A stretch of 60,000 bases of DNA, filler included, from Sphacelaria rigidula (lineage: Eukaryota), in NCBI GenBank assembly GCA_964200075.2. It is 9 parts of 9 records of this genome, joined end to end, with 100 filler letters (N's around TTAATTAATTAA, not from the genome) between each part and the next. Parts side by side here need not be neighbours in the genome. Positions count along the whole stretch, not along the records: positions 20,035 to 26,612 come from CAXNAA020019248.1; 8 more parts are not named here. The stretch is one strand, 5' to 3'. Shown piece after piece: positions 265-46,646 of this stretch; position 1 is the first letter of the stretch; the number at the start of each line of letters is the position of its first letter. Made by a program: the position numbers and the translations under genes. A model generated the notes under the pieces. The model was not told the origin of the DNA. It ran no database searches and was given only the letters and a program-made list of their open reading frames with translations.

Positions 265-1610
265 GGATGGCAATGTGTGGGGGTGTGCTGTGTCTTGAGG
301 TGTGTTAGCGAGCGTTTTGCGAGCAGGAAGCGAGACAGAGAGAAGAGAGAGAGAGAGAGAGAGCCCTCGGAACGTTGGCGGCAGATGACGTGTTCGAGCA
401 GAGAGGCCCGTCGCGCACGTGCGAGTCTTTATTGAGTAGGCTCGTCGTGTGTATGGCGTATGGACCCGGCATTTAGGCGAAGAAGTGGTTTGGAACTCTT
501 TGATCGTTTAACGTCAACATGGACGTCTTGCATGATGAGTCTACCCGCCCGACGTATGCAATCACTCTATTGCATATGCTGTATAATCAACAAACCCTAA
601 CCCTCACCCCAACGAAGACCTACCGGGGACCGTGAGGCAAAGGGGCTGAAAAGGATCCCCTAGGCAAAGTTTACGTAGCGAAACCTCAAATCGGCGCCTA
701 CGGCGCCGATGTAGACAAAAACGCGTTCTGCGCACGCTAGAAGCACGCTCCCCACTCAAGATCTGGATTCCGGTATCCACACTAAGACCAGGTGGAGAAT
801 TTCCACACCTATCAAGTGATGAACTCTACTGCTTCTCATGGCCCTGCACACACCCCTCTGGGAAAGTTCGGGGTATGTTTGTCATAGTTTTCCCGAAATC
901 GTTTCTTCTGGGACCTTTTCTAGGAGAGCACTTGTTCGAGATCGAGAGTATCTTCCACAGAGGTGCCTTTTCTGCCCATCTCGCTAAAAAAGTGGAATAT
1001 TTTTGGAGATATCCAGTTCGTCGGAAAGAGTATTCGTCAACAACACAGTACAGGCAGCACACGTACCGCGCACGGTGCAGCACCGGCATAAAGTACTCGT
1101 AGCCAGTATACCGCTGCGCAACGGTAGAGGCGGAGGACAGCCACAGCAGACTGCTGTGCAGTACATACATGTATGGACAAACGGCAGTAACATACTGTAC
1201 GGCATATGCTGAACGGTAGCAAAGACAGCACTACATCGGACATGGAAGCCCGGGTTGGGACTACAGACAGTACATAGCTGTAGACGAAGGGATTAATGCG
1301 GTGAAGATGTTCTTCGGCATGTGTGTAGATGGAGAGGTGATGGTGGTGGCGTGGTGTGTGAGTGTGTACCGAGGGTATGGCGCAAGTTTGATCGAGTGGT
1401 GGGGGAGCTCGGGAGCCAGAGAACCAAACGTTCTGTCTCCCAAATTATCGGAACGGACGAAGGGCTCGGATGGAAAAACAGATGTACTATTTTTTCAAGC
1501 GGACGAAAGAGTGGCCTGTGAGTGGCTAGAGAGCGCGTGAAATGCTGCGCCGTAAGACGTCGAGAGAAATTCTCCTGAGATTCAACGAAAATGTTGAAAA
1601 AATGCAAAAA
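265..1610 (+). repeat. Non-coding dispersed repeat shared with contig 2 (about 7185-9050)
   Basis: Collinear similar blocks: AGAGAGGCCC..GTGCGAGT (~400/7595), AACGTCAACA (~510/7704), AGATCGAGAGT (~939/8225), ATCGGAACGGACGAAGGGCTCGGA (~1448/8892). Confidence 0.7.
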
Positions 1611-2685
1611 CGTACTTCCAAAGCTTGAGCTAAGTTCTGACTTATCATTATATCGGCCGACCAGTCACTTTGAAATTCTGCGTGGCCCATGTAGTCCTGC
1701 AAGCAGCCTGTGGTGAAGTTTTTTGTGTGAGGTATAACAGGGTTACGTGACACATTTAGCGCTTCATATGACGAATGAAAACCTTCATCAATCGCGCGAA
1801 GTGGTAACATCTATATCACTGTTAGATGCATACCTACTACACGGGCTATGGTGCCTGATGGGAAAATAAACAACCCCCTTGCTACATGCTGTAGTATCCA
1901 CCGTGCCGTTGCATCCCCTGCGCACCACGAAAAGTGAGTGCGAGCGTCGAGAAATTAGCAATGAAGCACACCTCGGACAGATCAGGATCCGTCTCAACAT
2001 TAATTCTTGTCGGTATATTGATATGGATCATGATCCGGATCATTTGCCCCCCCCCCCCCCTTTCCATGTTCGCTCCTGGCAGCGCCGATTGCCGAGCACG
2101 CCGAGTAGCGCAAAGGTTGCGCTTTGGCTTTTGTGACTCCGCGGTCACATTCTTTGTGTTTTTGGACCAACGAATTCGAGAATCCTCTTTGATATGTTGT
2201 TTTAGACAGATCATGATCTGTGCGACGTTTGCAATGCAGGACCTTTACATTTGTGAAAACGTCCCCAAATTCGCACTTCTCAAGACAATTGCCTCCTTTT
2301 TAAAACATCGTGACATGTCCTCAATATTTCTTCAGTTTGTTGCCATTTTTTCGTCATATCTCAACGTTTTGTGTCATACATCACAACTAAATATAATGTT
2401 CTGGTTTCAAAACCCAGTGCACGTGCGGTTTCATGCGTCCCTTGGACAGCACAACTTGCCGTCGATATCCGCCTATAACCGATGTGTATGTCCCAATGTT
2501 CGTGGGCAGCATCAACGCCCATGCGCACATAAACATTGAGCCTGACTCTAACGTCAAATCAAATCCATAGCAAACCCTGAGCCTGAACTCACCCCATTGA
2601 CCGTCAGAGTACCTTCGTAAGGTGTACATGTAGGCTATGTAGATTGATGCAGCACACGTCCAGGCTAGTATGCATTGTTCAGGGT

Positions 2686-2862
2686 CGCGATAAAAAATAA
2701 AGGCAAGCACCGCAGAAGGAACGTGGGGTACTAAAAACAAATAAAAAGTAATAACAAAAAAAAACTCCTGTATTGACCTTTCTCCTGAGTAACCCCGGCT
2801 GGTGCGCCCACATATACCGAAAGGTGTAGACCGGCGTCCAGAATGGATGGGACGACAACACA
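2686..2862 (+). mobile_element. 5'-truncated copy of the tRNA-derived SINE family (3' body and tail)
   Basis: CGCGATAAAAAATAAAGGCAAGCACCGCAGAAGGAA...GGGACGACAACAC matches the copies at 13885 and 42861. Confidence 0.8.
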
Positions 2863-3426
2863 GGGTGAACATCTCTAGATTTTCTGCGTTGGTGCGATAT
2901 ATATCTGAACTGTCTGCGTTGGTAAGTTGGACATCTGAGCCAGTCTGTCTGGCCAATGTTGCGCCTGATGAGTGTCACGTTTTTTTATCGGCCCCCCGAG
3001 AAACGAGGCTTGGTAAATTCAAAGGAGTCAGCACTGCCAAAATAATTATCGTAGCCATGTAGTCCAAGAATTCCGACGCAATTAAACCCATCATAAGCTC
3101 ACGAACTAGCGACGGATATTGTACAAACCAGTATAGGATATGTACTCATTGTGTAAATGTGATGATCATTTTTCATTTTGGCCTTCTCGCACGCGATCCT
3201 ACAAAACTCAGGGTTACCCTACCGTACGCGCACTGTCACTTGACACATTATCTGTCCTTTTGTCAGGGGGCGTCGTTGGCGACTACGTCATGCGCCATAC
3301 CAGATGATGCGATAGTTACAGAAACACATACTACGGTGGCGTATAGTAAGTGAAGGCTCGGCGCCAAATATATATTTTTCGGGCGACTGAAACGTTCTAC
3401 AGCTTCCAAAAACCGCATCAATGAGG

Positions 3427-3830
3427 GTGTCACGCAGGAGAAAAAAAAAAAACGAAAATATGTATGTTTTTCTTCGTAATGAGTTTTGCCTTAATATCCA
3501 TGATTTTGGACGTTACCCTTGGGCTTGCTCGGGTTTAACTTTTGAACGAATATTTCACTGTAGAATCGTCAATTGTGATAAGAATATAACACCCGATGGC
3601 TTGAAATAATAGTGTGGGTAAGGCTGTCACGCAGGAGAAACCAAAACGAAAACGTAATATTTTCGCAATGGATTATGCCTTCATATCCACGATTTTGGAC
3701 GTATAGTTTACCGTAGAATCATCAATTTTGATTGGAATATAACAACCGATGGCTTGAAAAATCCGTATGGATAAGGGTGTCGTGCAGGAGGAAACATCAC
3801 AGGAGAAAAATATTTTACTAATAAGTTATG
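3427..3830 (+). repeat. Diverged tandem repeat, about 3 units of 150-200 bp
   Basis: Recurrent TGTCACGCAGGAG(A) starts at ~3429, ~3625 and ~3778; shared GATTTTGGACGT and CCGATGGCTTGAAA. Confidence 0.7.
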
Positions 3831-4285
3831 CCTTAATCAGTGTTATGCCGGAAGAAGAAAAAATAATTATTCGGAACAGAATCCGACATCTTTTCGCCCC
3901 GATACGCACGCACCCACAACGCAACCCCAGATTCAGCAACATGAGGTTGTTGCCTGTGGTCTACATGACATGCGGGCCAAGCTTCAGCGCGTAAAAGTGC
4001 TGACAGCGCGTAGACGGCCGTGCCTCCTGAATTTAGCACCCCTACAGATGGTAGGAAGATGTGTACCGCACATGATTTCATGATCCGGAATGTGTACAAA
4101 TCCAGATCGATGTTCGCTTAACGACGCAGAAGCTGCGTAGTAGGTCATGACGCGGAAGTGAGTGCACACGCGTGTCAACATATGCATCCAGCGATGTCTC
4201 ACGCAGTCTGGTCTGCAGGGACGCCGTTTTGAGGGTGTATGGACAGCATAACCCCAAATCCGTGTTCGCTCTGTTCTTAATGCGC

Positions 4286-4330
<45 letters not shown>

Positions 4331-6458
4331 CGGTTGTCTGTCTGTTCTGTGGTCCGTGTCCCGTGGTGTGCTGGTCGGTTGTGNNNNNNNNNNGGATTTC
4401 GACGGTGGGCCTTTCCAATCAGGGGGGTAGGGAAGCAAAACCCCCAATCCCGGGTTCCTCTGTTTTTTAAGCCCCCCCCCCCCCCCCCCCCATCACGTGC
4501 CGCTGAACAGCGTGTATGTTGTGTGTACTGTGCTGCACCTATGTGCCAAGTTTGAAGGCAAATGTTGTGGACACGGTGAAGAAATTCACAAAGTAACGCT
4601 TCAAAAATGGAAAATGTAGTACCGAACCATCGAAAGGTATATGAGGTGCGGTTACGCCGCATATCACAGATGCGGTGAGTTACCGCCGTCCTATTTGCAG
4701 CCCTTCGTTCACTCGCCACCCAGTACGACGACAACTAGTGCAGAGTCCGCGAATTCTTCGGGTCGTGGGTGCGATAGCTCACCCTCCGATGGTTTCTTGT
4801 ACCAATAGTGTTAACATCAAGAAACACTACGAGCTGAGGTATCGCGCAGATGCGAAACTGCACCCCAGTGCGGCTGTGTGTCCACGCGACATATTCAGTC
4901 GATGCCGTCACAAGGGTTGGGTTTACGGAACGCCTTCTTGTCGGATAACTTTGTTGTATCCATGGAAAGTATCTCTGTTTGGCCACTTATCGCGTGTAAG
5001 AAAGTATTTCGGTGGAAATCGCCTGTTTCACCCTCCCAAATGACCCCGAAGATGAGGTTTAGGCGGAGGTTGACACCTCGGAACGATCGTATCTTTTCGG
5101 TGATACTGTTTCGTGGCGATTTTTTTGTCCAATAGTTATGTCACGGTTCTAGTCGTGCCCGAAATTACCATCTCAGCAAGAAGCGGCCAACTCAAAAAAC
5201 ATATACGAAGAAAAAAAAACGATTTTGCTTTCAACAAAGGAAAACGAAAGTGTTTTTAACAACTTGATCGTTTGTTACTGGAATTGCAACTCCGGCCGTG
5301 AACGAAACTGTCGCGTACACGATACGCAAAGGTCCTCGGGTCTTCATTTTTCTTGTTACGTGACCGCCCCTGTTATGGAGAGTGCGGGTTCGGCCACAAA
5401 GTCTTGCGGGGGTTCTCAAGGTCCTCTACAACGGTGTCCACGAAGAAAGCTTGTCATTCGGAGGTGCCAACATCCGCTCAACCCTCTCGTCGGCTGGAAA
5501 TCGACAGCGAAATGCCAACAGCCAACCACATGAATGTTTCACACCTCACAAATAGCCTTGGGGTCAAGACTTAACGGTAGCACTTTCGGCGGGCTTTGTA
5601 AAAAACGAAGTATAACATTTGTCGGATATTGCAGTTCCGCAATCACTAGAACACGTACATAGACCAACGCAGGCGAAAACTGTCACAGCGTATTTTTTCC
5701 AGGTGATACCAGCCCCGTTATGGTCGGGGCCTTCACTGCATACATCCCCGAAATTAACACCGAAGACATAACGAAGCCCAAAAAATCCCATGATATGACA
5801 TCGCAAGAGGTCACGTCAATGATACTTTTTGTTTGGGGAGAAGAACGCATGACTCTCGCAATTCTAGCGCCGGATGCTTTTGCTATTTCCAGGGAGTAAC
5901 ATGTTGGAGGAACCTGCACAAGTACCGGTATCCCTTTCAAAACGCACAGTGTCCGCAGGAAGAACACCCGCCCTCAACACTCAATACCCTGATGGTATGA
6001 CCACTGCATCCTGCGCAGCGGCGAGCGGTTCAGGCCGCAAAACCGTTCGGGAAAATGTCGACCGCCCACATCAATACGCACGACGCGCCGGCGTCGTTCG
6101 ACACCCAACAACTCCCCGGACTTTGATGAGAAAAAAGACGAGAGGAAATCGCGCCCGTCGACCCCTCCACCGCCGCCGCCCCGGGCACATCTACAGATAT
6201 TGCACGGAGATGTCGAGCGCATAATTTGAAGGACAGCCGATCCTTTATTGAGCCCACATTACAGCCTACGTGTACATGGTCTCCATCCATCCGCGATGCA
6301 GCCCGTGGCAGCCTTACGGTCTGGGTTCGCCGCTGTTGGTGCACCTGAGGCGAAATGTAGCGCACACTGTGGTGAATAGACGCAGAGAGGGTCAGCGAGC
6401 CTGAGTCGTGTTCCTTTCGACCCGGGGGGGGGGTAGGAGGGTGGCGACGGCGGCGAGG

Positions 6459-6578
6459 AGGGGGGTACTTAGATCATTCATCTCATAGTCATAAGACCAT
6501 CGACCTCGCACGCCTACAAAGTCGGGACGGAGCACACCGGGTTTTCGCCGGGCCAGGCTCGCACTCGAAACCAAGGGG
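6459..6578. repeat. Short dispersed G/C-tailed repeat; other copies ~13002-13110, ~13196-13256, ~39557-39645 (same strand) and ~9812-9891, ~34130-34213 (opposite strand)
   Basis: Conserved core GACCATYGACCTCGCAYCCCTACAAAGCCGGGACGGAGCACGCCGGGTTTTCGCCG next to a G-run. Confidence 0.85.
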
Positions 6579-6678
6579 NNNNNNNNNNNNNNNNNNNNNN
6601 NNNNNNNNNNNNNNNNNNNNNNTTAATTAATTAANNNNNNNNNNNNNNNNNNNNNNNNNNNNNNNNNNNNNNNNNNNN
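6579..6678. other. Artificial contig linker N44-TTAATTAATTAA-N44; same linker at 13257-13356, 19935-20034, 26613-26712, 33291-33390, 39969-40068, 46647-46746, 53324-53423
   Basis: Eight identical 100-nt spacers with stop codons in all six frames. Intervening segments are 6578 bp (first seven) then 6577 bp, consistent with size-sorted unplaced contigs. Confidence 0.98.
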
Positions 6679-7514
6679 GTTCAATAACAAAAAGACTAAG
6701 GCAAGCAACAAATGAGTACGCCCCCCCCCCCATTGGCGCCTGCTTTTGTCACAGATGAACTTGTTACTTTTAAACGAAGTCTAGAAATCTTTTGGTGGGC
6801 GGGGGGACACTTCCGTTTGATTTTTTTTTTTCGAATGCCACGTTGAAGGCGCCATGCTTTTTTAAAAAAGGAAAAGGAAAATTGAAATGAAGATGAAGGT
6901 GCCGACTTCTTCACTTGGCTACAAAAGCGACATGCTAGATCAAATTCTCAAAAAGTGATGATCAAACTGTGCATGGCTGCCATAAACATTTACCTCGAAT
7001 AACTTTCAACCACGGCTGGGTTTGTCGAGGACCAGTTAATGTGCGACAGTCAATCAAATCAAGCAATCCTATCCCATACAAGCTTTTTCGGCGGCTTCCC
7101 ACGACGTACATACTCAGTAAATTGATTCGAATATATATTGATGAAATGCATTGAAAATTGCCCCGGACACGTGTAATATGTGTTTGGATGGCAGTGTCTT
7201 GAGGAGTGTGTTGTGTTAAGGTTTGTGATCGAGTGTGTAGCGAGTGTGTATTGAGTGCGCAGCCAGTGAGCACACGTCGAACAAGTCATCTCATACAACT
7301 CATTTCCGTACAATCCAGCTGTTGAGATGTACGAAGCACTGTATAACGCAGCGCTATCTATTCCCACTGGCAGAGCTATATTGTATAGCTCAGCGGTACC
7401 ATTAGCTGAACTGTGCTGTATAGCTCGGTGGTACCTTTTCCCACTGGATGGGTCATATCACAGTTAACTCATGAGTTGTACGACATGTGCAAGTGTGTAA
7501 CGAGACAGAAATGA

Positions 7515-7556
<42 letters not shown>

Positions 7557-9196
7557 AGCCCCCGTGACGATGGCGGTGTATGATATGTCCGGACAGAGAG
7601 GCCCATGGCGAAGGTGCGAGTATCCATGGTGGAGGCCGTCGGGTGCATGTCGTGCGACCCCGGCGCGTAGGCGAAGGTGTAGTTTCAAACCCTGTGGTCG
7701 TTGAACGTCAACACGAACGTCTACCATTCGAAGTTCTACCGTCCGACGCATGCGCTATCACCCAGCTGTGTGTACACTGTATCACAAACTGTATACTTCG
7801 TAGATGATGATGAAAAAATGCGCAGTTTTTTTCTGGATCTTTTTTTTATTTATTTCCTCATGCGTTATTATAGGTAGCTAGCCTGTGACTACGGGAGGCA
7901 TCCGCATCAGATGCCCAGTACAAATGTACCGCGCAGATATCGGAACGGTTTTTAATGTGAAAGCAACAACAACAACAACAACAACAACAACATCGAACAA
8001 TGCTCGAAGCATGCCATGACGCGTACCTCATATGTTGGAATCCAGGATGTGATCTCGCTCGTTCAAATAACGTGGGGAGAATTTGAACTCCGGTGTGTAC
8101 AACCCCCTCAGGCCGCTTATTTTGGTCTCGACAAAACCTTTCTGGAAAGCGCTCGGGTGATTTTTCAAGAATTTTCTCATGGAGCCGTTTCTCGAGGTAT
8201 CTCTTCTGGGAGAAAAGTTGTTCAAGATCGAGAGTGTCCCCCCGGAGATATGCTATCTCCGCCCTTCACGTCGAGAACTGTAGATTGTTTTCGGAGAGAC
8301 CAATTTTTCGTCGGGAAAAGGGTTGATCTAAATCGCTTCCCATCGAGCACGGTGCAGTTAGCTGTGCAGACGGCATATACATGGTGCACGGGTGCGCACA
8401 ACAGTTCAGAGAGCACACGCAGTGTGTACGGTGCAGCAACGACAGTGTAATGCAGCCAGCATCCCGCTGCGCACCAGTGCAGGCGGTAACACACACCCGC
8501 AGTAGACAGCTGTGCAGTGCATGCATGCACAAACAGCAGCAGCAGCACACTGTACGGCACAGGGAGTACGGTAGCAGAGACCGAGGAGTAATAGACACTC
8601 CTGATCATGTCCATCTCAGCGGTACATGGTGTACCTTTCCGTCGGGGAGTGAACATGTGCCATCGAGCGCCCAGTGACGACGGTTCCCGCAAGATGACAC
8701 TTTTTGAGAGGACGTTTCATTCGCCTCTTCCTCCTCATCCTCTGTGTACTTTATCCTCGCAGCGGTCTCTCTCTCGCATGCCATGCGTTCTTTCTCCGCT
8801 GCTCGCCATCGTCCTGCCTGTCGCAATCACCATATGGTGCGCGCACACAGCACCGACCAGCCTACAGCACAGAAGAGATTGTCCCGGAATGATCGGAACG
8901 GACGAAGGGCTCGGACGGGAAAAGACGTGTACTCTACTTTCACGCGAACGAAATGATTACCCGTGAGGGCGCCAGAGCTGGCGAAATGCTGCCCCGTCAG
9001 ATTTCGAAGGAAATTTCTCGTGCACTCCGACGAAAATTCTAATGTAAAAAAGGTTGTGAATATATTCTATATATTTTATATTTCAAGAACAAGAGCGGGT
9101 AGCACACAACACACGCCACACACCACCCTGCAACGATCATCGTAGACACCCGAGAGCGGATGAGGGCAGAAAGTGGTGAATGTTGTGCCATGCTAG

Positions 9197-9329
9197 GGTT
9201 TTGGCAGCGATGTCCCCACTGCGAGCTCTCGAAGACCCTGCGAGAGGTGACCGAGCAATCATCAGCAGTCATCTTGCGCGCAGCATGAAGTCACGGGAGG
9301 TGCTGCCGCAGCAACCGGTACAGTGCGAG
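9197..9329 (+). CDS. Possible internal exon of an unknown gene (VLAAMSPLRALEDPARGDRAIISSHLARSMKSREVLPQQPVQCE)
   Basis: TAG acceptor, GAG|GTATCT donor, open frame, phase compatible with the candidate exon at 10221. No recognisable domain. Confidence 0.3.
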
Positions 9330-10220
9330 GTATCTTTCCCAATACAGAACGCTTTTTTTTCGTGAAGTTGCAGCCGACCTTCGCAGCCGAAAACAAGTGT
9401 AATGTTCGTTGAGTTATTGGCGCCGACGTGGATCACCGGGACTCCTGAAATTAGTAGCACCTAATCGTAGTTTTCCCGTCACATGAATCGCGAATTGTCC
9501 CAACAAGTCAGTGCTGCCACTTGCACCAAAAGCACCATGTGGTCGCTAGGAGCAGAGGCGTGGTGTCGTGATTTATGCGTGAGTTTCATCAAACCATGGC
9601 GGACAAGAAATAAGCAATCGGAAGCTGGTACAATAGGAAAAAGTATACACCAACGCATACATGAACGACGACCCCGACACTTTTGATTGATTGATTGTCG
9701 CACTTTAAGTGACCCCCCCAGGGATCCAGCCGTAGTAATATGATAGACGTACCCCCAAAATTAACCAATCCCTGAATAAATGGAGAGGGAGAAGGCTCGA
9801 CGATTACGCTGGGAGCCTGGTCTGGCAGAAACCCGGCGTGCTCCATCCCGGCTTTGTACGAACGCGAGGTCAATGATCCTACGACTATGGCAGAATTTTA
9901 TTACACAAATTTAAGTTTAATAATAACATTGTTTATTCTGATAAGGATGAGTTGATGAGCTATTGAATTTATTTCGAAAATATTGTGTTTTTTTTTTCAA
10001 TATAGGCACTTTTATTGTTCATATACTTGAAGTTCAAGAGGAAAGTGTATTCGCTCCGCGTTTGAGTGCAAGTGCACCTTCCTTTAACTACGACCTGCAA
10101 CAATCATGAGTACACCCCCTAGATGAATGAGCAAGCCATCGAGTGGCTTGGCGACCTCTCTGTACCAACGTCAGCCACTCTCTTTGCCCCCTCCCCTCCT
10201 CCCCCCCTCACTATAAACAG

Positions 10221-10404
10221 GCCGAGTCGTGCATCGCAGGGGGAGTGAAGCCCCCTCCCGCCGCCGTGTTCCGAGAGCTGTGCCTTTCTCCTTGGGCATA
10301 CGTTTGCCACGTGATGGGATTGACGCAGGCCCTGTCCAGTGTGGTGGCAGCCGCGGCGGGACTACATGCGGTGTGGCCGGTCCGCGGTCCGACGGCTCTT
10401 GCAG
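10221..10404 (+). CDS. Possible internal exon of an unknown gene (AESCIAGGVKPPPAAVFRELCLSPWAYVCHVMGLTQALSSVVAAAAGLHAVWPVRGPTALA)
   Basis: Pyrimidine-rich tract then AAACAG acceptor, GCAG|GTGAAA donor, GC-rich open frame. Confidence 0.35.
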
Positions 10405-13400
10405 GTGAAACGACCAAAAAAAAAGTGGGAAAAAAAACCGAAATGGCATAGTAAAGTGATCGATTGATCGTCTGATGGAATGAATGCAATGGTTGGTTCT
10501 TTCGGTTGGGTTGATCTAATAAATGGTTGAATCGTTTGGGTAGTTTTGAAATTTTTGGACCAGATCAGTCCTGTTATTCGTATTCTTCTATTATAGCGCT
10601 TTTGTCCCTTTTTTTGTGTGTGTGTGTGTGCTTTTTTTTTCTCCGTCTGAAGATTTCACTAGTTTTTCCAAGACTCCAAAAGTACAGGTTTATGGGGAGG
10701 GGGGAGCGGTGGGATGTTTGTTCCGGTAACATTGTCGTGGTGCCATCTAGTGGTACATATCTTACGGAGAACGACCTCAATCCTCAAGCCTTCCTCTGCA
10801 ATTGCTGAATCCCGAAAACGAGAGAGAGACAGGGAGGGAGACAAACGGGGAGGGAGGAGGGAAGGCTCTCGTCGTGTGCTGAGGGGAGCGTTCCCGATTT
10901 TTCGATCTTGTACGATGTATGCTCGCTGGTTCGTACTGCAATAGTGTATGTGGCTGCTGTTCGTTGAGTCTATGTGTACCCTTCGGGTTCGTCTGTTTTA
11001 TTTTGTCTCGTCATCCTCTTTTGGTTATGAATCCACGTCTTGTGCTGTGCTGCATCAAGCACTGTACCGAGTCCGGCGAAGAACAGGAACTATCTGGAAC
11101 TGAAACGCCTATTCCGGTGCTTGAACTATTATTTTCAAGGGGTACGGGGGTGGCTCGAGAAGGGAAAATACGGCAAAGTCTAGAGAGGAGCTTCCCGCGT
11201 GCTCTCACGTTTCTCGCCTTTTTTGTTCGCTGTTTTTATTGTGTCTTTTCGCCATAATATTGATTATCCCCATCTGCAACGGTTTTGGGTGTCCCTATCC
11301 TCTTCCTTTTCGTTTCCATTCCTTCGCTTTACTTTCCTGTCTTTTTCTATATTTTGAATATAGACAGTGTACATATATCGTCTCTCTTCATTCACTTAAC
11401 CCCGTCTGTTCTGTAGTTTTTTTTCAAGTCTTCTCCCTTTGTCGACTTTCCCTCAGCGAGGAATGTTCCTGTGTTGAATAGTTCCTCGGGTACCTCAACC
11501 TCGGGTGACCACGGCTGCATCCCTCTGGGGTTCGTCAGTTTGCGACAATTAGTCTCACCAATTGCTCGTGCCCGTAAATGTGACTTCGGAGCCGAGCTAG
11601 GAGTTTATCTCACACAAAACGTTCGTACAGTATCTATGGCTTCCTCCGAATCAGCCCGGTCTTGAGTACTGAAAGAGTGGGGTTCTCTGCGGTACTCTGC
11701 GAAGCTGTCACGACTTCCCTCGGAATTTTACCTCGCGAGAATCAAGATTCGAAAAAAAATGACACACTTGCTACGCGGAGAACCACAGTGAAGTAAAGAC
11801 ATGCCAGATGAATTAGACGCATCACAAGGCAGTAACGGAGAGGAACGATTTGGCGGAGTTGAACTATGCTGAGGGTGAGGTAGAGTATGCAGCATGTAGT
11901 ATGCCCATGGTGATTTTGAGTGGTAAACGGAGGTCGGAGCGGCTCGTGTTTTTTTTTGGGGGGGGGGAGTACTTATTCGGTGCTTGCCTTAGTTGTTTGA
12001 CCAGTGACCACGCATCCATTTCGAGATGGAGCAGGGGGGGGGGGAGGGGTTGAGCCTGACCCTTCCACCGGCAGGGTAGGCGATCTGTTGAGTCGGCACC
12101 ATTTTCCCTTCTTTGTTTCAAGGCCGCGTACATGGTGCCGATTCAACAGATTGGCTATCGTAGCTGTCGAAGGGTCATACGGAGACTTGACATGAGGGTA
12201 TTGTTTCCTCACGGACGTTTACCATCCTCGCAGTACTGGTCCAAATTGGGCGGTTTACTCCACGGTGAACATTCCAGGGGAAAGCCCTGGAGATTTGCAC
12301 CCAAATGCAGGACCTGTCCGTTCCCCCCTCTCCCCTATCTCGATTGAAATTAGGCGTGCACTCCGAACGAGTATGCTGCTGCAGTTTCTCATGTGCGAAT
12401 CCGTTTTTGTTTGCTCATATTCGATTTGTTGTGCGATATATCCTTGGCGAAAGCTGTTCGGAAGGCGTTTGCCTCGTCCCCTGCCCCTCTTTTCCTCGTT
12501 CTGTGAGACGTTGCCGGGCGTGTTCTTTCATTTCCTTCCCTTCCCCCTCCTCCCCCTCTATTTTTGTTTCCCCTCTCTGCAATTTACTTCTAGCGAGTGT
12601 TTCCATGTCTTTTTACCGTGAGTACGTCTGTGGTGTGACCAAGGCTAGATACGTCGCCGATCGTTTCATGTGCGATGATGAAATAATAATTAGACGAATA
12701 AATGAATTAATTAATCAATGAATCAGAGGATGAATCAGGGAATAAACCAGGGAATGAATCAACACATCAATAAATCAATGGCTCAATGGCTCAATGACTC
12801 AATGACTCAATGGCTCAGCGGTGTGAATGCCGAAAGGTTGCTCTTAGAAATTGCAATCATTATAATATACATGCAACTGTATTGAGTGGTCGGCTGTGAA
12901 TCCAGTGGTGGTCGTGTTTAGCCACAACATGGACGTACGTGGGCCAAGGTAGTGCGTGAACAGGAACGCTCTATCTCTAAAGGGAACCTGAGAGGGAGGG
13001 GGTGGGGTGTACTCATGATCTTGCATGCCGTAGTCTTGGGACCATCGACCTCGCATCCCCACAAAGCCGGGACGGAGCACGCCGGGTTTTCGCCGGACCG
13101 TGTTCGCAATCGCCAAGCGCGAAGCGCCTTGATGTGCTCGGCAAGTCGAATGAGGGGTGATCTGCGATCTACGAAGATTGTTCGGTAGAGAGAGGAGTGG
13201 GTGTACTCATGATCATGCATGCCATAGTCATAAGACCATTGACCTCGCATCCCTACNNNNNNNNNNNNNNNNNNNNNNNNNNNNNNNNNNNNNNNNNNNN
13301 TTAATTAATTAANNNNNNNNNNNNNNNNNNNNNNNNNNNNNNNNNNNNNNNNNNNNTAATCCTCCGGGTTCTCATCCTCAATGAAAAGCACCATCCTCAA

Positions 13401-13884
13401 CATAGATGATCGGCTGTTTTTAGCTGGTTTTGGGGGGGGGCTATCGTAGGAAGTGTCGACCACAAAATTTAAAGCATTTTTACAGGACTTTATTTTTGTT
13501 TGCTATCAGAAGCGACCTTATATAGTCAGGAAGCAGGTTCTCTGAGGACCGCCCTTATCATCAGAAGTCTGCGCAATTCGTAATTCCTTAGATACTTGGA
13601 GATTTTCCAAATTTCTTTCGCTTGCCACCGCTTATCACAGTGATTGTTGGATGCCAAAAAATGGACATCTGGAGATGTGAGAATTCTCTTCACAATTATC
13701 GAAAGAAAAAGTTCTGCAATCAATATTGAGCGACTTACGGTCTTGACCGATCTTCGGGGGTCCTGCGAAAGTGCAACCCATGTTCCATATTTTCAGTATT
13801 TTCGGTGAACCGACTCGATTTCGATCATATATATATGTGAATAAACAAAAAAGGTTAGTTTTTCGAAATTCCATCTGTCATCCA

Positions 13885-20034: not shown

Positions 20035-20099
20035 GAAAGCACTGTTTTAGGCTTGAATCTCGTCTCGGAGTTAAACCTCAATTCGCACAATTTGTTGTT
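20035..20099 (-). mobile_element. Terminus of an unclassified TIR element (AACAACAAATTGTGCGAATTGAGG...)
   Basis: Near-exact reverse complement of 26543-26612 and of 46572-46646. All three copies lie at contig ends. Confidence 0.85.
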
Positions 20100-22289
20100 T
20101 AATGTCTTCACGCTTGTATCCTTCACGGCGATTCCTGCAGGGATGAAAGCCATGGGATCCTGGTGGATGTATAAGGTAAAAGCAGACAACACATACAAGG
20201 GAAGACTCGTCGTCCAAGGATGGGGACAAGTACCGGGCATCGACTGCGGCAGCACCTTCACTCCCGTCTGTAGGCTACAGAGCATCCGTATGGTGCTTGC
20301 AGCGGCCGCGGAGATGGACTGGGAAATCTAGCAGCTGGACGTGCAGGCGGCATTTGTCCGTTGAAGAGGAAGTTTACGTCAAGATGGCCCCGGGCTATGA
20401 GGAGAACAATTCCGTGACGCGAGTTCCTCTCGTGATGAAGCTCCAGAAGTCGTTATATGGCCTTCGCCAGTCGCCACTGAATTGTGGAATACCATGGACA
20501 AATTTCTGGGGGAGATTGGTTTCACCTTTCTCGCTTCAGATCCCTGCATCTACGCCTTCACTGACAACGACGACAACGACAACATCAGGGCCGGTAACTC
20601 CCGGGGCGATTGTTATGGATCGCAGTACATATGGAGGAAGGGCAGTACAATGATGGGCCCAGCTATTCGACTGATGGGCTCGGAGGGCTAGTTGATGTGA
20701 CCTACGGGTATTCCAACTAGAGGAGAGGGAGTGGTGTCCGTTGTAACGGTTACAGACACGCCTCCATGCGCACCGTGGTTTTCATGATCCTTTGCGACCC
20801 TTTGTTTTACTCTCTTGAAGACGAGCAAACAACGAGCGAAGAGCTTATGTGAATCTGATTGATGAGGCTATCAAAGCCACCACCATGAAAGAGAAACTGA
20901 ATCGCTTCTGGAGCTGTGATCACTGTACTGCGTTGGACGTATTTCCCCTTGCTATGCTTTTGAGGGCTGGTAGCTGAACACGGTGAGACAATACAGTACG
21001 GATCCCTGAACCATACTCGGTACGTCAGTATTTTAAATATGGTCGTCACGATAGTATAATGATGAATGAATTCAGTGCACAAACAGATGTGTAGTTGAGG
21101 CATGTTCCGGCATAATCAACACGGTATATTAGTCATCACGTATTTGCATGCGCATGGAATGACTCAACTGGATGCTTGCTCGAGACCACGAGACATATCG
21201 CCTGTCTGTAAGCCAGTTGCGACGCCCAATACCGAGAACCCCAAAACTATACACTATTTAGTTTGTAACACGATACCGTCAGAACCGCTCTCGGACAGAG
21301 GAAGATTGTCGCGCTTCTCACCCTCTACGTGGACGATGTGCTCCTTGTTGGAGGGGGTGTGGCAGTACTGCAGGTGCTCAAGAAAAAGCTCATGGTTCGT
21401 TTCAAAATGACGAACATGGGAGACGTGTCACTTGTGTACTCGGAATGAGAGTCACCCGAGACCGCGAGAATGAGACGCTCACTACCAGCCAGGAGAACTA
21501 CACCAAAATCGATCCTGGAGAAGTACGGCATGAGGGACTGCAATCCGCTGAGCACACCAGGAACGGTAGCGGAGCTGTCACCAAATCAACCGGAAGAGCA
21601 GCTTCTGGATCCGGCGGCAACACAGCGATACCAGGCGATCACCGGCTCGTTAAATGTATCTAGCACAAGTGAACCGGTATGATATCCAGATTGCTGTCAA
21701 CCAGCTTGCGAGAGCGATGTCAAGACCATCAAAAGCACACATGGGTGCTGCGAAACATCTTCCACGTTACCTTGCGGGGAGTGCTACTTCCGATATCACG
21801 CACAGGAAGGAAGGATTTCATCTCACGGCGTTTTCGGACGCCAACTGGGGGAATAACCCGGATAACGGAAAATCGATGTCCTCGTATGTCGTCATGCTAT
21901 CGAACGCTCCGGTGAGTTTCAAAGTCGGAATACAGGGTCTAACTGCTCAGTCGACAATGAAAGCTGAGCTTGTGGCGGTAGCGCTAGCAATGAAGGAGGC
22001 TGTGTTCTGTTTCAACGTGATGGAGCTGGGATTCGGCGAGGCATTTCACAGTGTTCTGGGTCACATCGACAACACCTCAGCACTTCACGTTGCCGGTAAC
22101 AGCACATACAGTGGACGGACCAAGCATGCGGCATTGCGCTACTTCTTCATTCACGAACTCATTAAGAAGAGGAGGATTACCCTTCATTACGTGGATACCA
22201 AGAACGACATCGCCGACATTGGGACGAAGTACTTAGGCAAACAGCGTCACCTACATCTGCTGCACGTAATCAAGACATTTGGGACTTGA
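20100..22289 (+). pseudogene. Ty1/copia pol 3' part: reverse transcriptase and RNase H, with stops and frameshifts, interrupted by a solo LTR
   Basis: WMYKVK..YKGRLVVQGWGQVPGIDC, QLDVQAAF, EEEVYVKMAPGY, KLQKSLYGLRQSP, LYVDD (21323-21337), FSDANWG, AQSTMKAELVA, IDNTSALH, RTKH, DIADIGTK. Confidence 0.95.
20611..21270. mobile_element. Solo LTR (660 bp) nested in the copia RT
   Basis: TGTTA...TAACA termini flanked by 4-bp direct repeat CGAT (20607-20610, 21271-21274). RT homology resumes after it. Confidence 0.85.
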
Positions 22290-22519
22290 AATGAGGACGC
22301 GTACAAGGGAGCTGGTCTGATGCGTACTTTCTAGCGTGTGGTTGGATCACGACTGTGTTTTGAAGAAATGAGAACATAGAAAGTGTTGAGGAGAGAATCC
22401 ATGTGTACATTGAAAGGAATGTGCAGAAATGGAAGCATGCGTTTCCAAAAGTAGGTCTCAAATATTCATCCGTCCGGATTTCTTCATCTCTCCTGAGCGC
22501 TACTTCCATTGAGGGGAGG

Positions 22520-23141
22520 TGTCAAGAATTTCATGTTGCATATCATATCTGAGTCAATGTTCAGTAGCATCAAGCTAAAATACGGAGGCTCGTTCACGGC
22601 GTAACAGGCGGGACATTATACGGGGCAATAGGAAACGATTGAAGTTGTTGTGCAGCCTTCGAGAATCCTGTGGTTTAAAGGTTGTTCTGGAAAGATATCA
22701 TTGACTATTGGTCGCAGGCCAGTCAAGAACTCGCCAGGTGAATTAGATTTGGCGGTCGGATACGTTTTCTAGATTTGGCGGAGCATGCGATAGTGAATGT
22801 TCTCGAGGAAGATCCCTAATATGGGAACACTGAATGATTGTTCGAGAAGGTAGCAAAGTAGCGTAGCGATCTTCGTTGTGACCGTTCGACATGGTCTCAC
22901 TCGTCATCACTTCTCTTCACTTCTCTTCTTGTGGTTCTTCCCGTGTGGGACACTTTGTCTGTTCGTTTGGGATCTGCTACATGGATAAGTAATACTTCGA
23001 AGTAATAAATATACATTCGTGTTCAGACATCTGCAGTAATCACTCCTGAGACGAGGTCAGCATAAAGCTGCCTGCGCTAACCTCTGCAGTCACCTGCCAA
23101 GAAGAGTACAATGGTCTCCACGACTACCATATTCCTCAACA
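22520..23141 (+). mobile_element. LTR of the copia element (622 bp)
   Basis: TG...CA termini, immediately preceded by polypurine tract GAGGGGAGG (22511-22519) and immediately followed by a primer-binding site. Confidence 0.9.
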
Positions 23142-23152
23142 GGTTATGAGCC
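23142..23152 (+). promoter_or_regulatory. Primer-binding site complementary to the anticodon region of initiator tRNA-Met (half-tRNA priming)
   Basis: GGTTATGAGCC directly after the LTR CA; complement of GGCUCAUAACC. Confidence 0.85.
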
Positions 23153-23334
23153 TCGATTGTCTGCGAGGCGCAAACACTGAGAGTTTCTGAAGGAGAGCTT
23201 GCCGGGGAGACGTCTTTGACCAGTTCTACAGAGTTCTATAGAGACGCTGAATACCTGGGACAACACAGACACTACAAGTGAGTTGAGACAACCGCGGATT
23301 GTACTCTACGCATCTGGAGTCAAGGCGGCACGCT

Positions 23335-23872
23335 GTACGAGCTACAGTTAAAGCTGTGCCCGCAGGAAGGCGGCACAGTCAGGGAATTCGCACTTACGCA
23401 TCGAACATCGTTAAGCCTCGAAGCGTACAGCCTTGCGTAGTTCATCATCCCTGCGGACGAAACCTGCACCAGCTGCAGTCTGTACAAGCTATAGTTTAAA
23501 GCTGTGCGCGCAGGAAGGCGGCACAGTCAGGGAATTCGCACTTGCGCGTCGAGCACCGATAAGCCTCGAAGCGTACTGCCTTGCGTAGTTCATCATCCCT
23601 GTGGATGAAATCTGCACCAGCTGCGGTCTGTACGAGCTACAGTTTGAACGTGTGCGCGCAGGAAGGCGGTACAGTCAGGGAATTTGCACTTACGCGTCGA
23701 GCATCGTTAAGCCTCGAAGCGTACAGCCTTCCGTAGTCCATCATCCCTGCGGACGAAACCTGCACCAGCTGCAGTCTGTACAAGCTACAGTGAAAACCTG
23801 TGCGCGCAGGAAGGCGGCACAGTCGGGGAATTCGCACTTGCGCGTCGAGCATTGATAAGCCTCGAAGCGTGC
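23335..23872 (+). repeat. Tandem array of about 3.6 x 148 bp in the copia 5' leader
   Basis: Unit GCTACAG..TGTGCGCGCAGGAAGGCGGCACAGTCAGGGAATTCGCACTT starts at ~23341, 23488, 23637 and 23785. Confidence 0.9.
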
Positions 23873-23903
23873 AGCGTTGCGCGGTTCATTTCCTCTGTGC
23901 ACG

Positions 23904-26542
23904 ATGAGTCACACCGCCACCAGTTCCGACCGCATGGGGCCCGTTTTTAAACGGGTACCTACATTTTCAAACGATAAGAACACCTTCATTGCATGGAAAG
24001 ATCAGCTGCGAGTAGCTATACCTATCGTTGACAAGCCGATGTTCGCCGTTCTTAACGGTCAACGAAGGCCTACTGACGAACCAGCAGGGCGCAAATGGGA
24101 CCGAAAGAACAGCGACCTGTTTTCGATGTTGTTTCTTTCAACGATCGGGCCTGCAGCTGCGACCATCCGCGGTTCTTGTACACAGAGGATGGAGATCTTG
24201 ATGACCCGCGGGTCGACGATGGGCAAGGTGCGTGGAAGGCCCTGGTCGAGAAGTTCGACGGCAACACCAAAGCGGCTAGGCGGGCAGTTCACACTCAGCT
24301 GGTTAGCCGCACGATGAAACCGGGCGAGGACCCCGAAAAATTCTTCCAAGACATGGACGAAACTCGTCTGCGTCTGGAGGGTCTCGGGGATAAAATACAC
24401 GACGATCGCTACGAGGACATTACCCTCGAGGCGATAACCCCCGAGTACGACTTCGTGCCCACGAAATACTACATCAAGCGCGACTTCGGCATCGATAACA
24501 TTCGCACCGCAATTTGCAACGTGTACAATGATTGAAATTTTGATTCGTCAACTGCATCAACCGTGGCCGAGCCTGGAGCGGCCATGCAGGCTACATCTGG
24601 TATTCAGTGTCATCTTTGCAAGGGGTTTGGGCATCATCAACATGAATTCCCGAACAGCAAGCGAAGTCGGACACGGCCGAGTAATCCGACACGGAGACGT
24701 CAAAAGGCAGATAAGAAGGAGGAAAGTAACGAAGCATCAAAATGGTGCTCGTATCATAGAACAACACACAGCGACGCTGAGTGCAAGGCACAAGAAAAGA
24801 AAGCAGCATCGAATGGAAGCGTCAACATCGCCAATGTAAGCATTTCCCGGCCGTTCATCCCGCCGCCTGCCGCGGCGACGACTGCAAACAGCAATTCGTC
24901 CGGACCAGTCGGAGGATCCCAGCAACTTGTGATGACGGAGTCGGCTCCTCTAGTGTTTTCCTTCGGTGCGTCCAACCCACCACAGCATGTTGGACTCTCA
25001 GAGAACGCATTCGACCTCTTCGGTGCCTTCGCTGGGGGTACCTGGTTAGCTTTCATGGCGGCGGCACCAACGGCGGACAGCCAACGACACCAACTCCGTA
25101 ACCTGGCTGATGGACAGTGGCGCGACCGGCCACTACTTGGACACCAACCTCGAGTCGGGTGTATTAGCTCGGGCGCGTGAGTACACGGCCCTCGAACGGC
25201 GGTTCAAAATTGTAACAGGGGGACAGAATGAAATCGAAGCGGTTGAAACTGCCACCATCCATGGTACAGTCACCGACAGAGAAAAGAGGGCGCACCATGT
25301 TGTTGGTGTGAACAGCCTTTTCAGTGTAGTCTGCAGTACTGACAAACCACGGTACGAAGGTATCTGTCTTTACTCGACAGTGTCAGTTACATGCGGTGGG
25401 ATTTGATACCGTAGTAGGCGTATATCTTGTACTTACGTACGTGATGTCTGACTGGGGAGGTCTACCTGTCATGGTGTTGAGGTAGCCACACTCAGTCACT
25501 TCCTTCTCTTCCTTCTCTTATTCTCTTCCTTCTGTTTCCTTCCTTGACTTGCTTAGTCAAGCGATGTAAGACTACTCTTCTNNNNNNNNNNCTCAGCCGT
25601 GTCCTTTGATCGACTTCATCAGTCGTGTCCAGCTGTCCCTCTTTATGGATCATGTGTCATGGAACACATGTCGCCCTCTCTTGCTTCGTCGTCCCCGGAC
25701 TCGGGCGTCATCTGTTCTCCGTGAAAGTGGCGACCAAGCAAGGTATCATCGCCATCTTCGATCAACATCATCCCCGCCTGGAGACTTCATCGCTCGTGCT
25801 TCCCCTGGAACAATCGGTTCATGATCAAGACCTCTGCACGTTCCGCATGAAGCTAGGCGGCCACGCGGAGCAGCAACCTGGAGGTGCTATGCACGTCAGC
25901 ACCGGCACAAACCTCTGGCATCGTCGACTTGATCACGTCGGCATCAAGTACGGAGCCGACGATGACTTTGCGAGGGATGTTCGCAAACATGGTATCAGCC
26001 TTTTCAACGACTCCATGACCACATCTGCTGGATCCTCGTCCAACAACCACGAACGTATCATCAAACTGTTCGGAGATCTACGCGACGTGACGGACCGCGT
26101 CAACGATCTCATCGGATATTCATCGAGAGAGGTCCCCGCTGGAGCTTCCCCGGGAGGAGTAGTCACTGAAGGCTCACCTCCAGTAACAACACCGTCAACT
26201 ACAGCGGGTTCTTCGCGTGTCAGCACGCGAGCGAACCCACAAGCCCCAATAGACATCATCTCCGGTGCAGGTACGAGAAGCGCTCAAGCCCGCGAACTAA
26301 AGCGCCCGGAGACTCTGGCCGATTCCTACGCCAGGGCAAATATGCGAGATATCGCTCACGAGGATGAAGTTTCCTTTCTGGAGTGTGCGTACTCTTCCAC
26401 AAACACCCAAATTCGAAGTTGTTCGGAGGGGGAGAAAGTGGTCATAGTGCCGAACACCTTTCAAGGGGCAATGCGACTGCCAGAGGCGAAGCAGTGGAAG
26501 GCAGCGTCAGACAAATAAATAAAAAACCTCCGTTCCAATAAT
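23904..26542 (+). pseudogene. Ty1/copia gag, protease and pre-integrase region, frameshifted, integrase core missing
   Basis: gag (FIAWKDQL, AWKALVEKFDG, MKPGEDP), decayed zinc knuckle CHLCKGFGHHQHE, WCSYHRTTHSDAEC, protease DSGATGHY and VPGLGRHLFSV, LWHRRLDH, pre-RT VPNTFQGAMRLPEAKQWKAA. Confidence 0.92.
25301..25666. mobile_element. Second nested LTR (solo LTR or collapsed element; contains a 10-N gap) in the protease
   Basis: TGTT...AACA termini with 5-bp TSD CATGT (25296-25300, 25667-25671). Removal restores EKRAHHVALSCFVVPGLGRHLFSV. Confidence 0.85.
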
Positions 26543-26612
26543 AACAACAAATTGTGCGAATTGAGGTTTAACTCCGAGATGAGGTTCAAGCCTAAAACAG
26601 TGCTTTCCCCAC
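26543..26612 (+). mobile_element. Terminus of the same unclassified TIR element
   Basis: Inverted match to 20035-20099; preceded by TAAT, the same 4-mer that follows the other terminus. Confidence 0.85.
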
Positions 26613-46571: not shown

Positions 46572-46646
46572 AACAACAAATTGTGCGAATTGAGGTTCAA
46601 CTCTGAGATGAGGTTCAAGCCTAAAACAGTGCTTCCCCCACACTTT
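46572..46646 (+). mobile_element. Third terminus of the AACAAC TIR element
   Basis: Near-identical to 26543-26612 with an unrelated flank, which fixes the element boundary to within about 2 nt. Confidence 0.85.

Follow-up and report, generated by a model that had tools for sequence, protein, structure and literature searches.

An old copia copy of Sphacelaria rigidula with nested transposon insertions, in an inside-out order that probably reflects assembly closure through the LTR

Results

The window, a stretch of 60,000 nucleotides (filler included) from the Sphacelaria rigidula assembly, is made of nine pieces of 6578 or 6577 nt each, spaced by N44-TTAATTAATTAA-N44, and from this layout we take the piece at 20035-26612 to be one whole scaffold of 6578 nt. 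Gaps of 10 N are present in three of the nine scaffolds, in this one at 25582-25591; the near-equal lengths together with these gaps indicate that the assembly is length-sorted, scaffolded, and fragmented. From left to right, the scaffold carries the end of a TIR element, the motif TAAT, RT, RNase H, a polypurine tract (PPT), a single LTR, a leader, gag, protease (PR), an integrase remnant, a second TAAT, and the start of a TIR element. All features described below are given on the plus strand, except two nested insertions that carry no strand. The permuted one-LTR copia order proposed in an earlier note on this DNA is borne out by RVT_2 at 20104-21448, by Retrotran_gag_2 in 24077-24535, and by the tblastn map of P0002, a full-length relative of 1616 amino acids with gag, protease, integrase, and RT domains that served as the query.

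The first part of the RT (20104-20610) corresponds to P0002 residues 1115-1288 (aligned at 20098-20610), contains three in-frame stops, and gives the best Pfam match to RVT_2 (E 4.3e-16); two further RVT_2 pieces fall below the curated cut-off. The second part, which includes RNase H (21275-22289), is also matched by RVT_2 and corresponds to residues 1293-1614 (21314-22280), with two frame changes, and its final 211 codons are open (ORF 21654-22289). Beyond the LTR, a stretch that starts with an ATG at 23904 and extends to 25300 comprises gag (Retrotran_gag_2, E 1.9e-8), a zinc knuckle region, and the first part of the protease; it corresponds to residues 3-528 and bears frame changes and one stop. 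In the tblastn map, gag occupies 23922-25066 and PR occupies 25080-25346 and 25667-25939. The last coding stretch (25667-26538) holds the end of the protease, an integrase zinc-finger remnant, and the linker to the start of RT (residues 504-589 and 970-1123, the latter aligned at 26114-26563), with a weak gag_pre-integrs match near 25900 (E 0.018) that stands before RT once the two TAATs are merged. The Pfam search of 20035-26612 returned no rve match, and by tblastn nothing in the scaffold corresponds to P0002 residues 590-969, which make up the integrase core. After merging of the TAATs, the domain order matches that of P0002 except for this missing core.

Judged from its sequence, which combines an RVT_2-type RT with a copia-type gag, the copy belongs to Ty1/copia, and among named proteins its nearest relatives come from brown algae. 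Over 82% of its length, the RNase H part shares 83% identity with an unnamed Sphacelaria rigidula copia protein; it is 68% identical to P0002, 60-64% identical to three unnamed copia proteins of Ectocarpus sp., and 54% identical to a fourth. Unlike these brown-algal Ty1/copia relatives, the scaffold copy is without an integrase core and shows stops, frame changes, and three nested insertions; altogether the signs of decay are six stops within the aligned parts, several frame changes, the three insertions, and one deletion.

The public-run data (X1-X4) consist of contigs, mostly of 130-380 nt over 20035-26612. The insertion at 20611-21270 (660 nt) has TGTTA...TAACA ends and CGAT direct repeats, lies between P0002 residues 1288 and 1293, and resembles a solo LTR from a different family; a single X4 contig connects 20606 to 21275 with four other letters between, and X1 depth over the insertion is 2000-3500, versus 300-800 for the copia interior. 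The insertion at 25301-25666 has TGTT...AACA ends and CATGT direct repeats and resembles a solo LTR from a family of very high copy number: its X1 depth is ∼5e4, and a joint from 25295 to 25667, omitting 371 letters with 4-5 ambiguous letters, is present in X1, X2, and X3. The 10-N gap of the scaffold lies within this insertion and is short, because the loose ends at 25581 and 25592 overlap. The earlier note was silent on the loss of the integrase core, on these two insertions, and on the gap.

The single LTR (TGT...ACA) has a minimal extent of 22520-23110. Its 5′ edge, where the polypurine tract read from the sequence, GAGGGGAGG (22511-22519), directly precedes the TG at 22520, is backed by a depth step: over the LTR bins, X1 depth rises from 543 to 3220 and later drops from 4330 to 1274. 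The position of the 3′ edge is uncertain, and the LTR may extend further right; we leave it open because one X3 contig (depth 750) links 23094 to 23839, its shorter side measuring only 27 letters. Three CA...TGG sites, at 23109, 23311, and 23933, are candidate PBS sites, the first of them at the end of the minimal extent. A tRNA scan found no tRNA gene in the window for comparison with them, and no inverted match to the first 12 letters of the LTR (start taken as 22521) stood out at the candidate 3′ ends. Between LTR and gag, the leader contains a tandem repeat of 148 nt × 3.8 (23333-23889; TRF score 883, 88% matches, family D1). The scaffold has one LTR-like stretch rather than two flanking direct LTRs with an outer target-site duplication (TSD), and there is no second LTR copy within the window.

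We consider it probable, though far from certain, that this inside-out order is the closure of one copia copy through its LTR by a short-read assembler. One observation against this reading is that no N occurs between RNase H and gag, LTR included, so any false join left no mark. An uninterrupted PPT-LTR-leader is also what would be seen in a real tandem array (LTR-int-LTR-int-LTR), produced by unequal exchange between 5′ and 3′ LTRs after the TIR insertion: both interiors would carry the same TIR insertion and TAAT, and the scaffold would extend from the TIR element of unit 1 across the middle LTR to the TIR element of unit 2. LTR elements in tandem arrays are a small minority, and we regard an array here as unlikely, if still a serious contender. 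Where tandem LTR retrotransposons sharing an LTR are treated in the cited sections of McGurk and Barbash 2018 (PMC5932611, citing Ke and Voytas 1997), PPT, LTR, and leader lie within one DNA stretch, as they do here, and an insertion predating the exchange sits in both units with the same TSD. The scaffold differs from the arrays of those sections in that it shows neither outer LTRs nor a second unit, and its interior depth does not seem to be doubled.

Both scaffold ends lie in inverted termini, each abutting TAAT, as the earlier note had described. The right-hand terminus of the TIR element, read from the interior outwards and ending ...GTTGTT, forms the scaffold start (20035-20099) and is followed by the first TAAT (20100-20103); the second TAAT (26539-26542) is followed by the left-hand terminus, which reads inwards as AACAACAAATTG... 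and forms the scaffold end (26543-26612). Over 65 nt (20035-20099 and 26543-26607), the two inverted arms show 97% complementarity; the runner-up inverted pair in 20035-26612 is 23 nt at 74%. Four of the 18 scaffold ends in the window break off 63-77 nt into a repeat terminus common to another scaffold end. This scaffold (piece 4) is involved at both ends and piece 7 at its right end, and piece 3 at its left end pairs with piece 8 at its right end. Piece 7 closes with a third copy of the TIR terminus (∼46572-46646), and the assembled length of each terminus is only 65-77 nt. Summed depth over the termini is 3.6e4 to 1.2e6 across the four runs, versus ∼8-70 for single-copy-looking contigs. In the runs, this TIR family reaches an extremely high abundance, and both ends of the scaffold are assembly breaks in a very high-copy repeat; the two termini can therefore belong to one TIR element. 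Thus the inverted termini of the bracketing proposed earlier stand, but two TIR copies are not required. As to the superfamily, PIF/Harbinger-type elements make a 3-nt TSD; this identity was rejected, since the CAT that precedes the piece 7 terminus is at odds with TWA and there is too little evidence for any superfamily to be named.

Run contigs connect 26538 to 20100, with four letters fitting either side, and so represent the empty site (joint depth 27.9 in X1 and 47.6 in X3); this joint was not seen among the X2 or X4 contigs. In agreement with the earlier claim that pol rejoins in frame when the TAATs are merged, P0002 spans the merged TAAT with neither gap nor overlap: its ...SLRAHK/VYELV... 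aligns with ...NLRSNN from the right end and VFTLV... from the left end of the scaffold, with no residue lost or gained. The gapless alignment, the empty-site contigs, and the restored frame support a single TIR insertion as the source of the TAAT duplication, which could instead consist of a 3-nt duplication plus one base of the element. The merged TAAT, the empty-site joint, and the restored frame also confirm that the sequence closes into a one-LTR ring opened at the TIR insertion. These data bear on another alternative, that the scaffold is a mosaic whose left and right parts come from different copies of the family rather than from one locus. The family is multi-copy, and read pairs bridged at least one repeat, in that the 10-N gap lies within a very high-copy insert. 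We nevertheless find a mosaic improbable: the insertion, its site, and the TAAT are identical at both ends, which meet without loss in P0002 coordinates; the only empty-site contigs seen have approximately single-copy depth; and both halves are ∼5% from the family majority.

In the runs, summed depth is 150-1900 for the copia interior and 1200-10400 for the LTR bins, which shows that the copia family and its LTR are repeats; the LTR region is several times deeper than the interior. Between the scaffold and the family contigs of high depth, the difference is 5.4% (19 pieces with 4109 letters compared, 223 of them other letters): the scaffold is an old side copy, and the family also has many near-identical copies. 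At three private LTR differences (22591, 22600, and 22903), nearly all the depth shows another letter, and where the scaffold's own letter is seen, it has approximately single-copy depth (X1 45.6 at 22600; X2 13.7 and X4 28.2 at 22591). Interior contigs that match exactly are also approximately single-copy (X1 26.1, X2 10.1-26.7, X3 59.6-71), the reference being the depth of single-contig joints (X1 25-40, X2 8-23, X3 48-74). The comparison of LTR with interior depth, suggested in the earlier note as a check, gives a ratio of ∼1 to 1.7× (contig means, 40 of 380 differences), which does not decide collapse.

These depths bear on each reading. Private LTR variants at approximately single-copy level are what a real middle LTR would show, and they count against closure by the assembler, since they lack the doubled depth expected of a full collapse (contig means being noisy). 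The interior contigs speak against a tandem array in so far as a recent, identical duplication would double their depth; an old one would be expected to yield another set of contigs, slightly diverged and bearing these nested insertions too. LTR variants and interior both near single-copy depth would also suit a one-LTR circle, formed by LTR-LTR recombination of the decayed chromosomal copy and either extrachromosomal or re-entered into the genome at another TIR copy; but the same depths suit the other readings, there is no positive evidence for a circle, and we judge it very improbable.

The earlier note reasoned that the LTRs of a decayed element should have diverged, somewhat against their collapse. 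We simulated pairs of LTRs and found an identical run of at least 63 nt for 590-nt LTRs in 88% of trials at 4% difference and in 50% at 6%, and for 1380-nt LTRs in 99% and 84%, respectively; at 8-10% difference, 590-nt LTRs shared a 63-nt run in 7-21%. Because LTRs 4-6% apart usually share such a run, the argument from decay is weak. It retains some force in that the element is old, so its LTRs may differ by more than 6%, which again counts against closure.

Discussion

The history we prefer is as follows. An old Ty1/copia copy, broken and with its integrase core lost, received three later mobile elements: two LTR elements, of which solo-LTR-like remnants are left, and one TIR element of a very abundant family, which inserted at the start of RT and created the TAAT duplication. 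A short-read assembler would have been unable to cross the TIR element, and for that reason the scaffold would open with the far end of this element and stop in its near end. From the 3′ end of pol, the assembler would have gone into an LTR and then out of an LTR to the leader and gag, the 3′ and 5′ LTRs being merged as one stretch through an identical run common to both, links between read pairs, or the filling of a gap. The parts and their order, the TSD, the empty site, the copy numbers, and the scaffold breaks in repeats are all observed; from them we infer that the join through the LTR was made by the assembler, and the ring would then be a feature of the assembly graph, not of a molecule.

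It is instructive to compare this with rings known from read graphs. The cited sections of Novak et al. 2010 (PMC2912890) attribute a circular graph layout to tandem organisation or to terminal repeats, as in LTR retrotransposons, and in those rings, as in the scaffold, a single LTR connects the 3′ end of pol with leader and gag, and the ring is opened at an arbitrary point, in the scaffold at a repeat that the assembler could not pass. The rings described in those sections differ in that they concern abundant, similar copies, while the scaffold is one diverged copy with private variants. Because the scaffold follows one such copy, its own two LTRs must have an identical run in common or be linked by read pairs for the join to arise. 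According to the cited part of PMC5751070, gene conversion between the two LTRs of an element occurs at high rates, and on this account they would stay alike.

The sequence closes exactly into the ring expected of a circle, and one-LTR circles made by LTR recombination are a class already described (Joubert and Krasileva 2022, PMC9694575, in the sections cited), with the same circular order and single LTR as the scaffold. Most circles in those sections stem from active elements, and others are rare products of recombination recovered by circle enrichment, whereas the scaffold copy is dead and has approximately single-copy depth in ordinary runs. A rare excised form would not reach that depth in three samples from two studies, and a broken element cannot form circles of its own by reverse transcription. 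The earlier note had offered the re-entered form as one of its readings, with the circle lying between two TIR copies amid non-copia DNA. To judge from run depth, thousands of TIR copies would provide homology for re-entry; a single TIR element together with an assembly break nevertheless accounts for the two termini. Past the termini, the flanks are outside the scaffold, and scans of three collections gave no match to the junction or TIR patterns: the copia/TIR junction, as an exact 31-nt pattern, is absent from metagenome_contigs, and a 26-nt TIR pattern is absent from genome_contigs, viral_contigs, and metagenome_contigs. That this dead copy left its site as a one-LTR circle, re-entered by homologous recombination between TIR elements, and now lies inside-out in non-copia DNA is hardly credible to us.

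If foreign DNA did surround an inside-out copy with a TIR element on either side, this would represent an unusual route of rearrangement, and re-entry of a circle would mean that abundant DNA transposons could move large pieces of unrelated sequence; nothing here points to such a copy. As it stands, the scaffold matters little beyond being a textbook example of how a fragmented assembly can turn an LTR element into a ring. It does carry a caution for scans of draft genomes, where inverted-repeat scaffold ends can be both ends of one unassembled transposon. For Sphacelaria rigidula, the locus is a cleanly documented case of nested transposons, in which a copia element was struck by two LTR elements and one TIR element.

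Results

The nine pieces of the window are each 6578 or 6577 nt long, with spacers of 44 N, TTAATTAATTAA and 44 N between them; their equal, slowly falling lengths mean that the assembly is fragmented and sorted by length, and that each piece is one of its whole scaffolds, taken consecutively. Features that lie across a spacer from one another in the window are not true neighbours. Scaffold gaps of 10 N occur in three of the nine pieces, one of them (25582-25591) inside the scaffold under study, piece 4 (20035-26612).

At its two ends this scaffold carries an inverted pair (20035-20099 and 26543-26607, 97% complementary over 65 nt), the runner-up within the piece having just 23 nt at 74%. Immediately inside each arm lies TAAT (20100-20103 and 26539-26542), as expected from the earlier note, which had read the ends as inverted termini of a DNA transposon (the TIR element) abutting its target-site duplication. 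A search of public runs gave four (X1-X4) with 23-29% of the sampled words, from two studies (one run labelled algae metagenome, the other three with a coded organism) and all in the form of short contigs, which we compared with the scaffold at 90% likeness. A contig joint from 26538 to 20100, with 4 letters compatible with either side, occurs in X1 (depth 27.9) and X3 (47.6) and is not among the joints listed for X2 and X4; therefore, in other copies or in the other allele the TIR element is absent and a single TAAT is present. The 4-nt duplication is firm as regards this empty site, the alternative being that 3 nt may have been duplicated and one base belongs to the element.

Bins holding the TIR termini reach summed depths of 3.6 × 10⁴ to 1.2 × 10⁶ in the four runs, apparent single-copy contigs there having depths of ~8-70. 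At its right end piece 7 likewise runs 77 nt into this TIR terminus, and another repeat terminus of 63 nt is found in inverted copies (97%) at the left end of piece 3 (13357-13419) and, 10 nt short of the right end, in piece 8 (53251-53313). Four of the 18 scaffold ends in the window break off in this way, 63-77 nt into a repeat terminus that another end shares; the scaffold under study is therefore bounded on both sides by assembly breaks within a very abundant repeat. The right end enters the TIR element at AACAAC... and the left end exits at ...GTTGTT, an orientation that fits one TIR element; two copies, as in the captured-circle reading of the earlier note, are unnecessary. The exact copia/TIR junction pattern (31 nt) is absent from the metagenome contig collection scanned, as is a 26-nt TIR pattern from the metagenome, genome and viral contig collections scanned.

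Several contigs of approximately single-copy depth, in up to four runs, join the right TIR terminus (20098-20106) to the left one (26542-26543) with 0-8 letters between; at several loci, copies of the element seem to follow one another head to tail, which double insertions at one site would produce. The same family is also inserted at 23141 in another copy of the post-LTR stretch (joint 23141-26541 in X1, X3 and X4, at about single-copy depth, with a shorter side of 24 letters).

Pfam places RVT_2 in three pieces at 20104-21448, a copia-type gag at 24077-24535 and a weak gag_pre-integrs match near 25900, and finds no integrase core anywhere in the piece. The open RNase H part (211 codons), used as query, retrieved 52 longer relatives, full-length polyproteins included, and the named brown-algal proteins among them are from Sphacelaria rigidula (83% identity) and Ectocarpus. 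We mapped one full-length relative, the 1616-residue P0002, onto the piece by tblastn: gag (residues 3-424) lies at 23922-25066, protease (434-528) at 25080-25346, the protease end with an integrase zinc-finger remnant (504-589) at 25667-25939, the linker up to RT (970-1123) at 26114-26563, the first part of RT (1115-1288) at 20098-20610, and the second part with RNase H (1293-1614) at 21314-22280. Residues 590-969, the integrase core, have no counterpart in the piece; these ~380 residues would fall at 25939-26114, and their loss may be private to this copy or may mark a non-autonomous subfamily. The scaffold order is therefore RT, RNase H, a non-coding stretch, gag, PR and the integrase remnant; as far as PR, it agrees with the order read earlier from the sequence. 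Across the junction P0002 reads ...SLRAHK|VYELV..., the right end of the scaffold ...NLRSNN and the left end VFTLV...; when the two TAATs are merged, the pol ends join in frame, as had been proposed, with nothing lost or gained relative to P0002. The coordinates abut likewise with two other relatives (P0009 and P0014), and the empty-site contigs of X1 and X3 agree.

Two nested insertions resemble solo LTRs from other families, judging by their ends. One (20611-21270, TGTTA...TAACA) lies between 4-nt direct repeats CGAT, and one X4 contig passes from 20606 to 21275 through just four other letters. The other (25301-25666, TGTT...AACA) lies between 5-nt direct repeats CATGT, and contigs of X1, X2 and X3 skip 25296-25666 with 4-5 ambiguous letters; its family has a summed depth of ~5 × 10⁴ in X1. 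This insertion contains the scaffold gap, and since the loose ends at 25581 and 25592 overlap, the gap seems to be short.

The polypurine tract of the earlier note and the 5' edge of its single LTR were recovered: the tract, GAGGGGAGG, ends at 22519, TG follows at 22520, and run depth climbs there and drops after 23114. By its TGT...ACA ends the LTR would span 22520-23110. Its 3' edge is uncertain, because one X3 contig (depth 750, shorter side only 27 letters) joins 23094 to 23839 and the bin 23775-23994 is deep again in the runs. Between the LTR and the gag ATG (23904), a 148-nt unit repeated 3.8 times (88% matches) fills 23333-23889, and the X3 contig suggests that this stretch differs among copies. 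For the primer-binding site of the earlier note there are three CA...TGG candidates, and no tRNA gene for comparison was found within the window; this putative site apart, what the note observed is confirmed.

Discussion

How does a copia element come to be laid out as a ring? A circular graph layout has been described as a sign either of tandem organisation or of terminal repeats such as those of LTR retrotransposons (Novak et al. 2010, PMC2912890). We consider it probable that the ring arose when the assembler connected the 3' LTR with the 5' LTR. The earlier argument that the LTRs of a decayed element will have diverged and should resist collapse is weakened by simulation: at 4% difference, two 590-nt LTRs have an identical run of at least 63 nt in common in 88% of trials, falling to 50% at 6%, 21% at 8% and 7% at 10%, with a higher chance for longer LTRs, and one run of this length is enough for a word graph to cross over. 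In some genomes, gene conversion between an element's two LTRs is reportedly frequent (PMC5751070), and the assembly was scaffolded with read pairs as well. A false join calls for nothing beyond what is documented here, namely repeats, scaffolding of a short-read assembly, and LTRs that probably have long identical runs in common.

A real tandem array sharing its middle LTR would give exactly such a scaffold and is a known, not rare structure, described as common for LTR elements in Drosophila (McGurk and Barbash 2018, PMC5932611); a recent one would double interior depth, and the figures show no clear doubling. The earlier note had suggested comparing LTR and interior in this way. Exact-match interior contigs have depths of 26.1 (X1), 10.1-26.7 (X2) and 59.6-71 (X3), close to those of single-contig joints of the same runs. 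Among the differences listed, nearly all depth at LTR positions 22591, 22600 and 22903 belongs to a letter other than the scaffold's, whose own letter has depth 45.6 in X1 at 22600 and 13.7 in X2 and 28.2 in X4 at 22591. Neither the LTR doubling of a full collapse nor the interior doubling of a recent tandem is clear, and the figures tell somewhat against both; they are compatible with a chimeric join of two diverged LTRs, an old tandem, or a ring. Little weight falls on them, because they are means over short contigs, from 40 of 380 differences and 24 of 726 loose ends listed. We regard the tandem array as possible but rather unlikely.

The depth figures are also compatible with a one-LTR circle, free or re-inserted, and circles from LTR-LTR recombination are a described class (PMC9694575). 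Such a circle, however, needs extra rare events, its capture between two TIR copies still more, and nothing observed speaks for it in particular; a rare excised circle would not attain single-copy depth in three samples from two studies. We consider a circle in any form very improbable, and a scaffold that is a mosaic of copies about as improbable. The choice among these readings is undecided, with the ordinary ones strongly favoured.

In the four runs the copia interior has a summed depth of ~150-1900 and the stretch 22455-23114 one of 1200-10400, in keeping with a multi-copy family in which the LTR is several times commoner than the interior. In 19 contig pieces with depth far above single-copy, 223 of 4109 letters (5.4%) differ from the scaffold and 39 gaps occur, several coinciding with frame changes of the scaffold; the aligned parts of the copia copy hold 6 stops. 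Given this difference, these stops, the three insertions nested in it and the loss of its integrase core, the scaffold copy is old, a side copy within a family in which similar copies are numerous as well.
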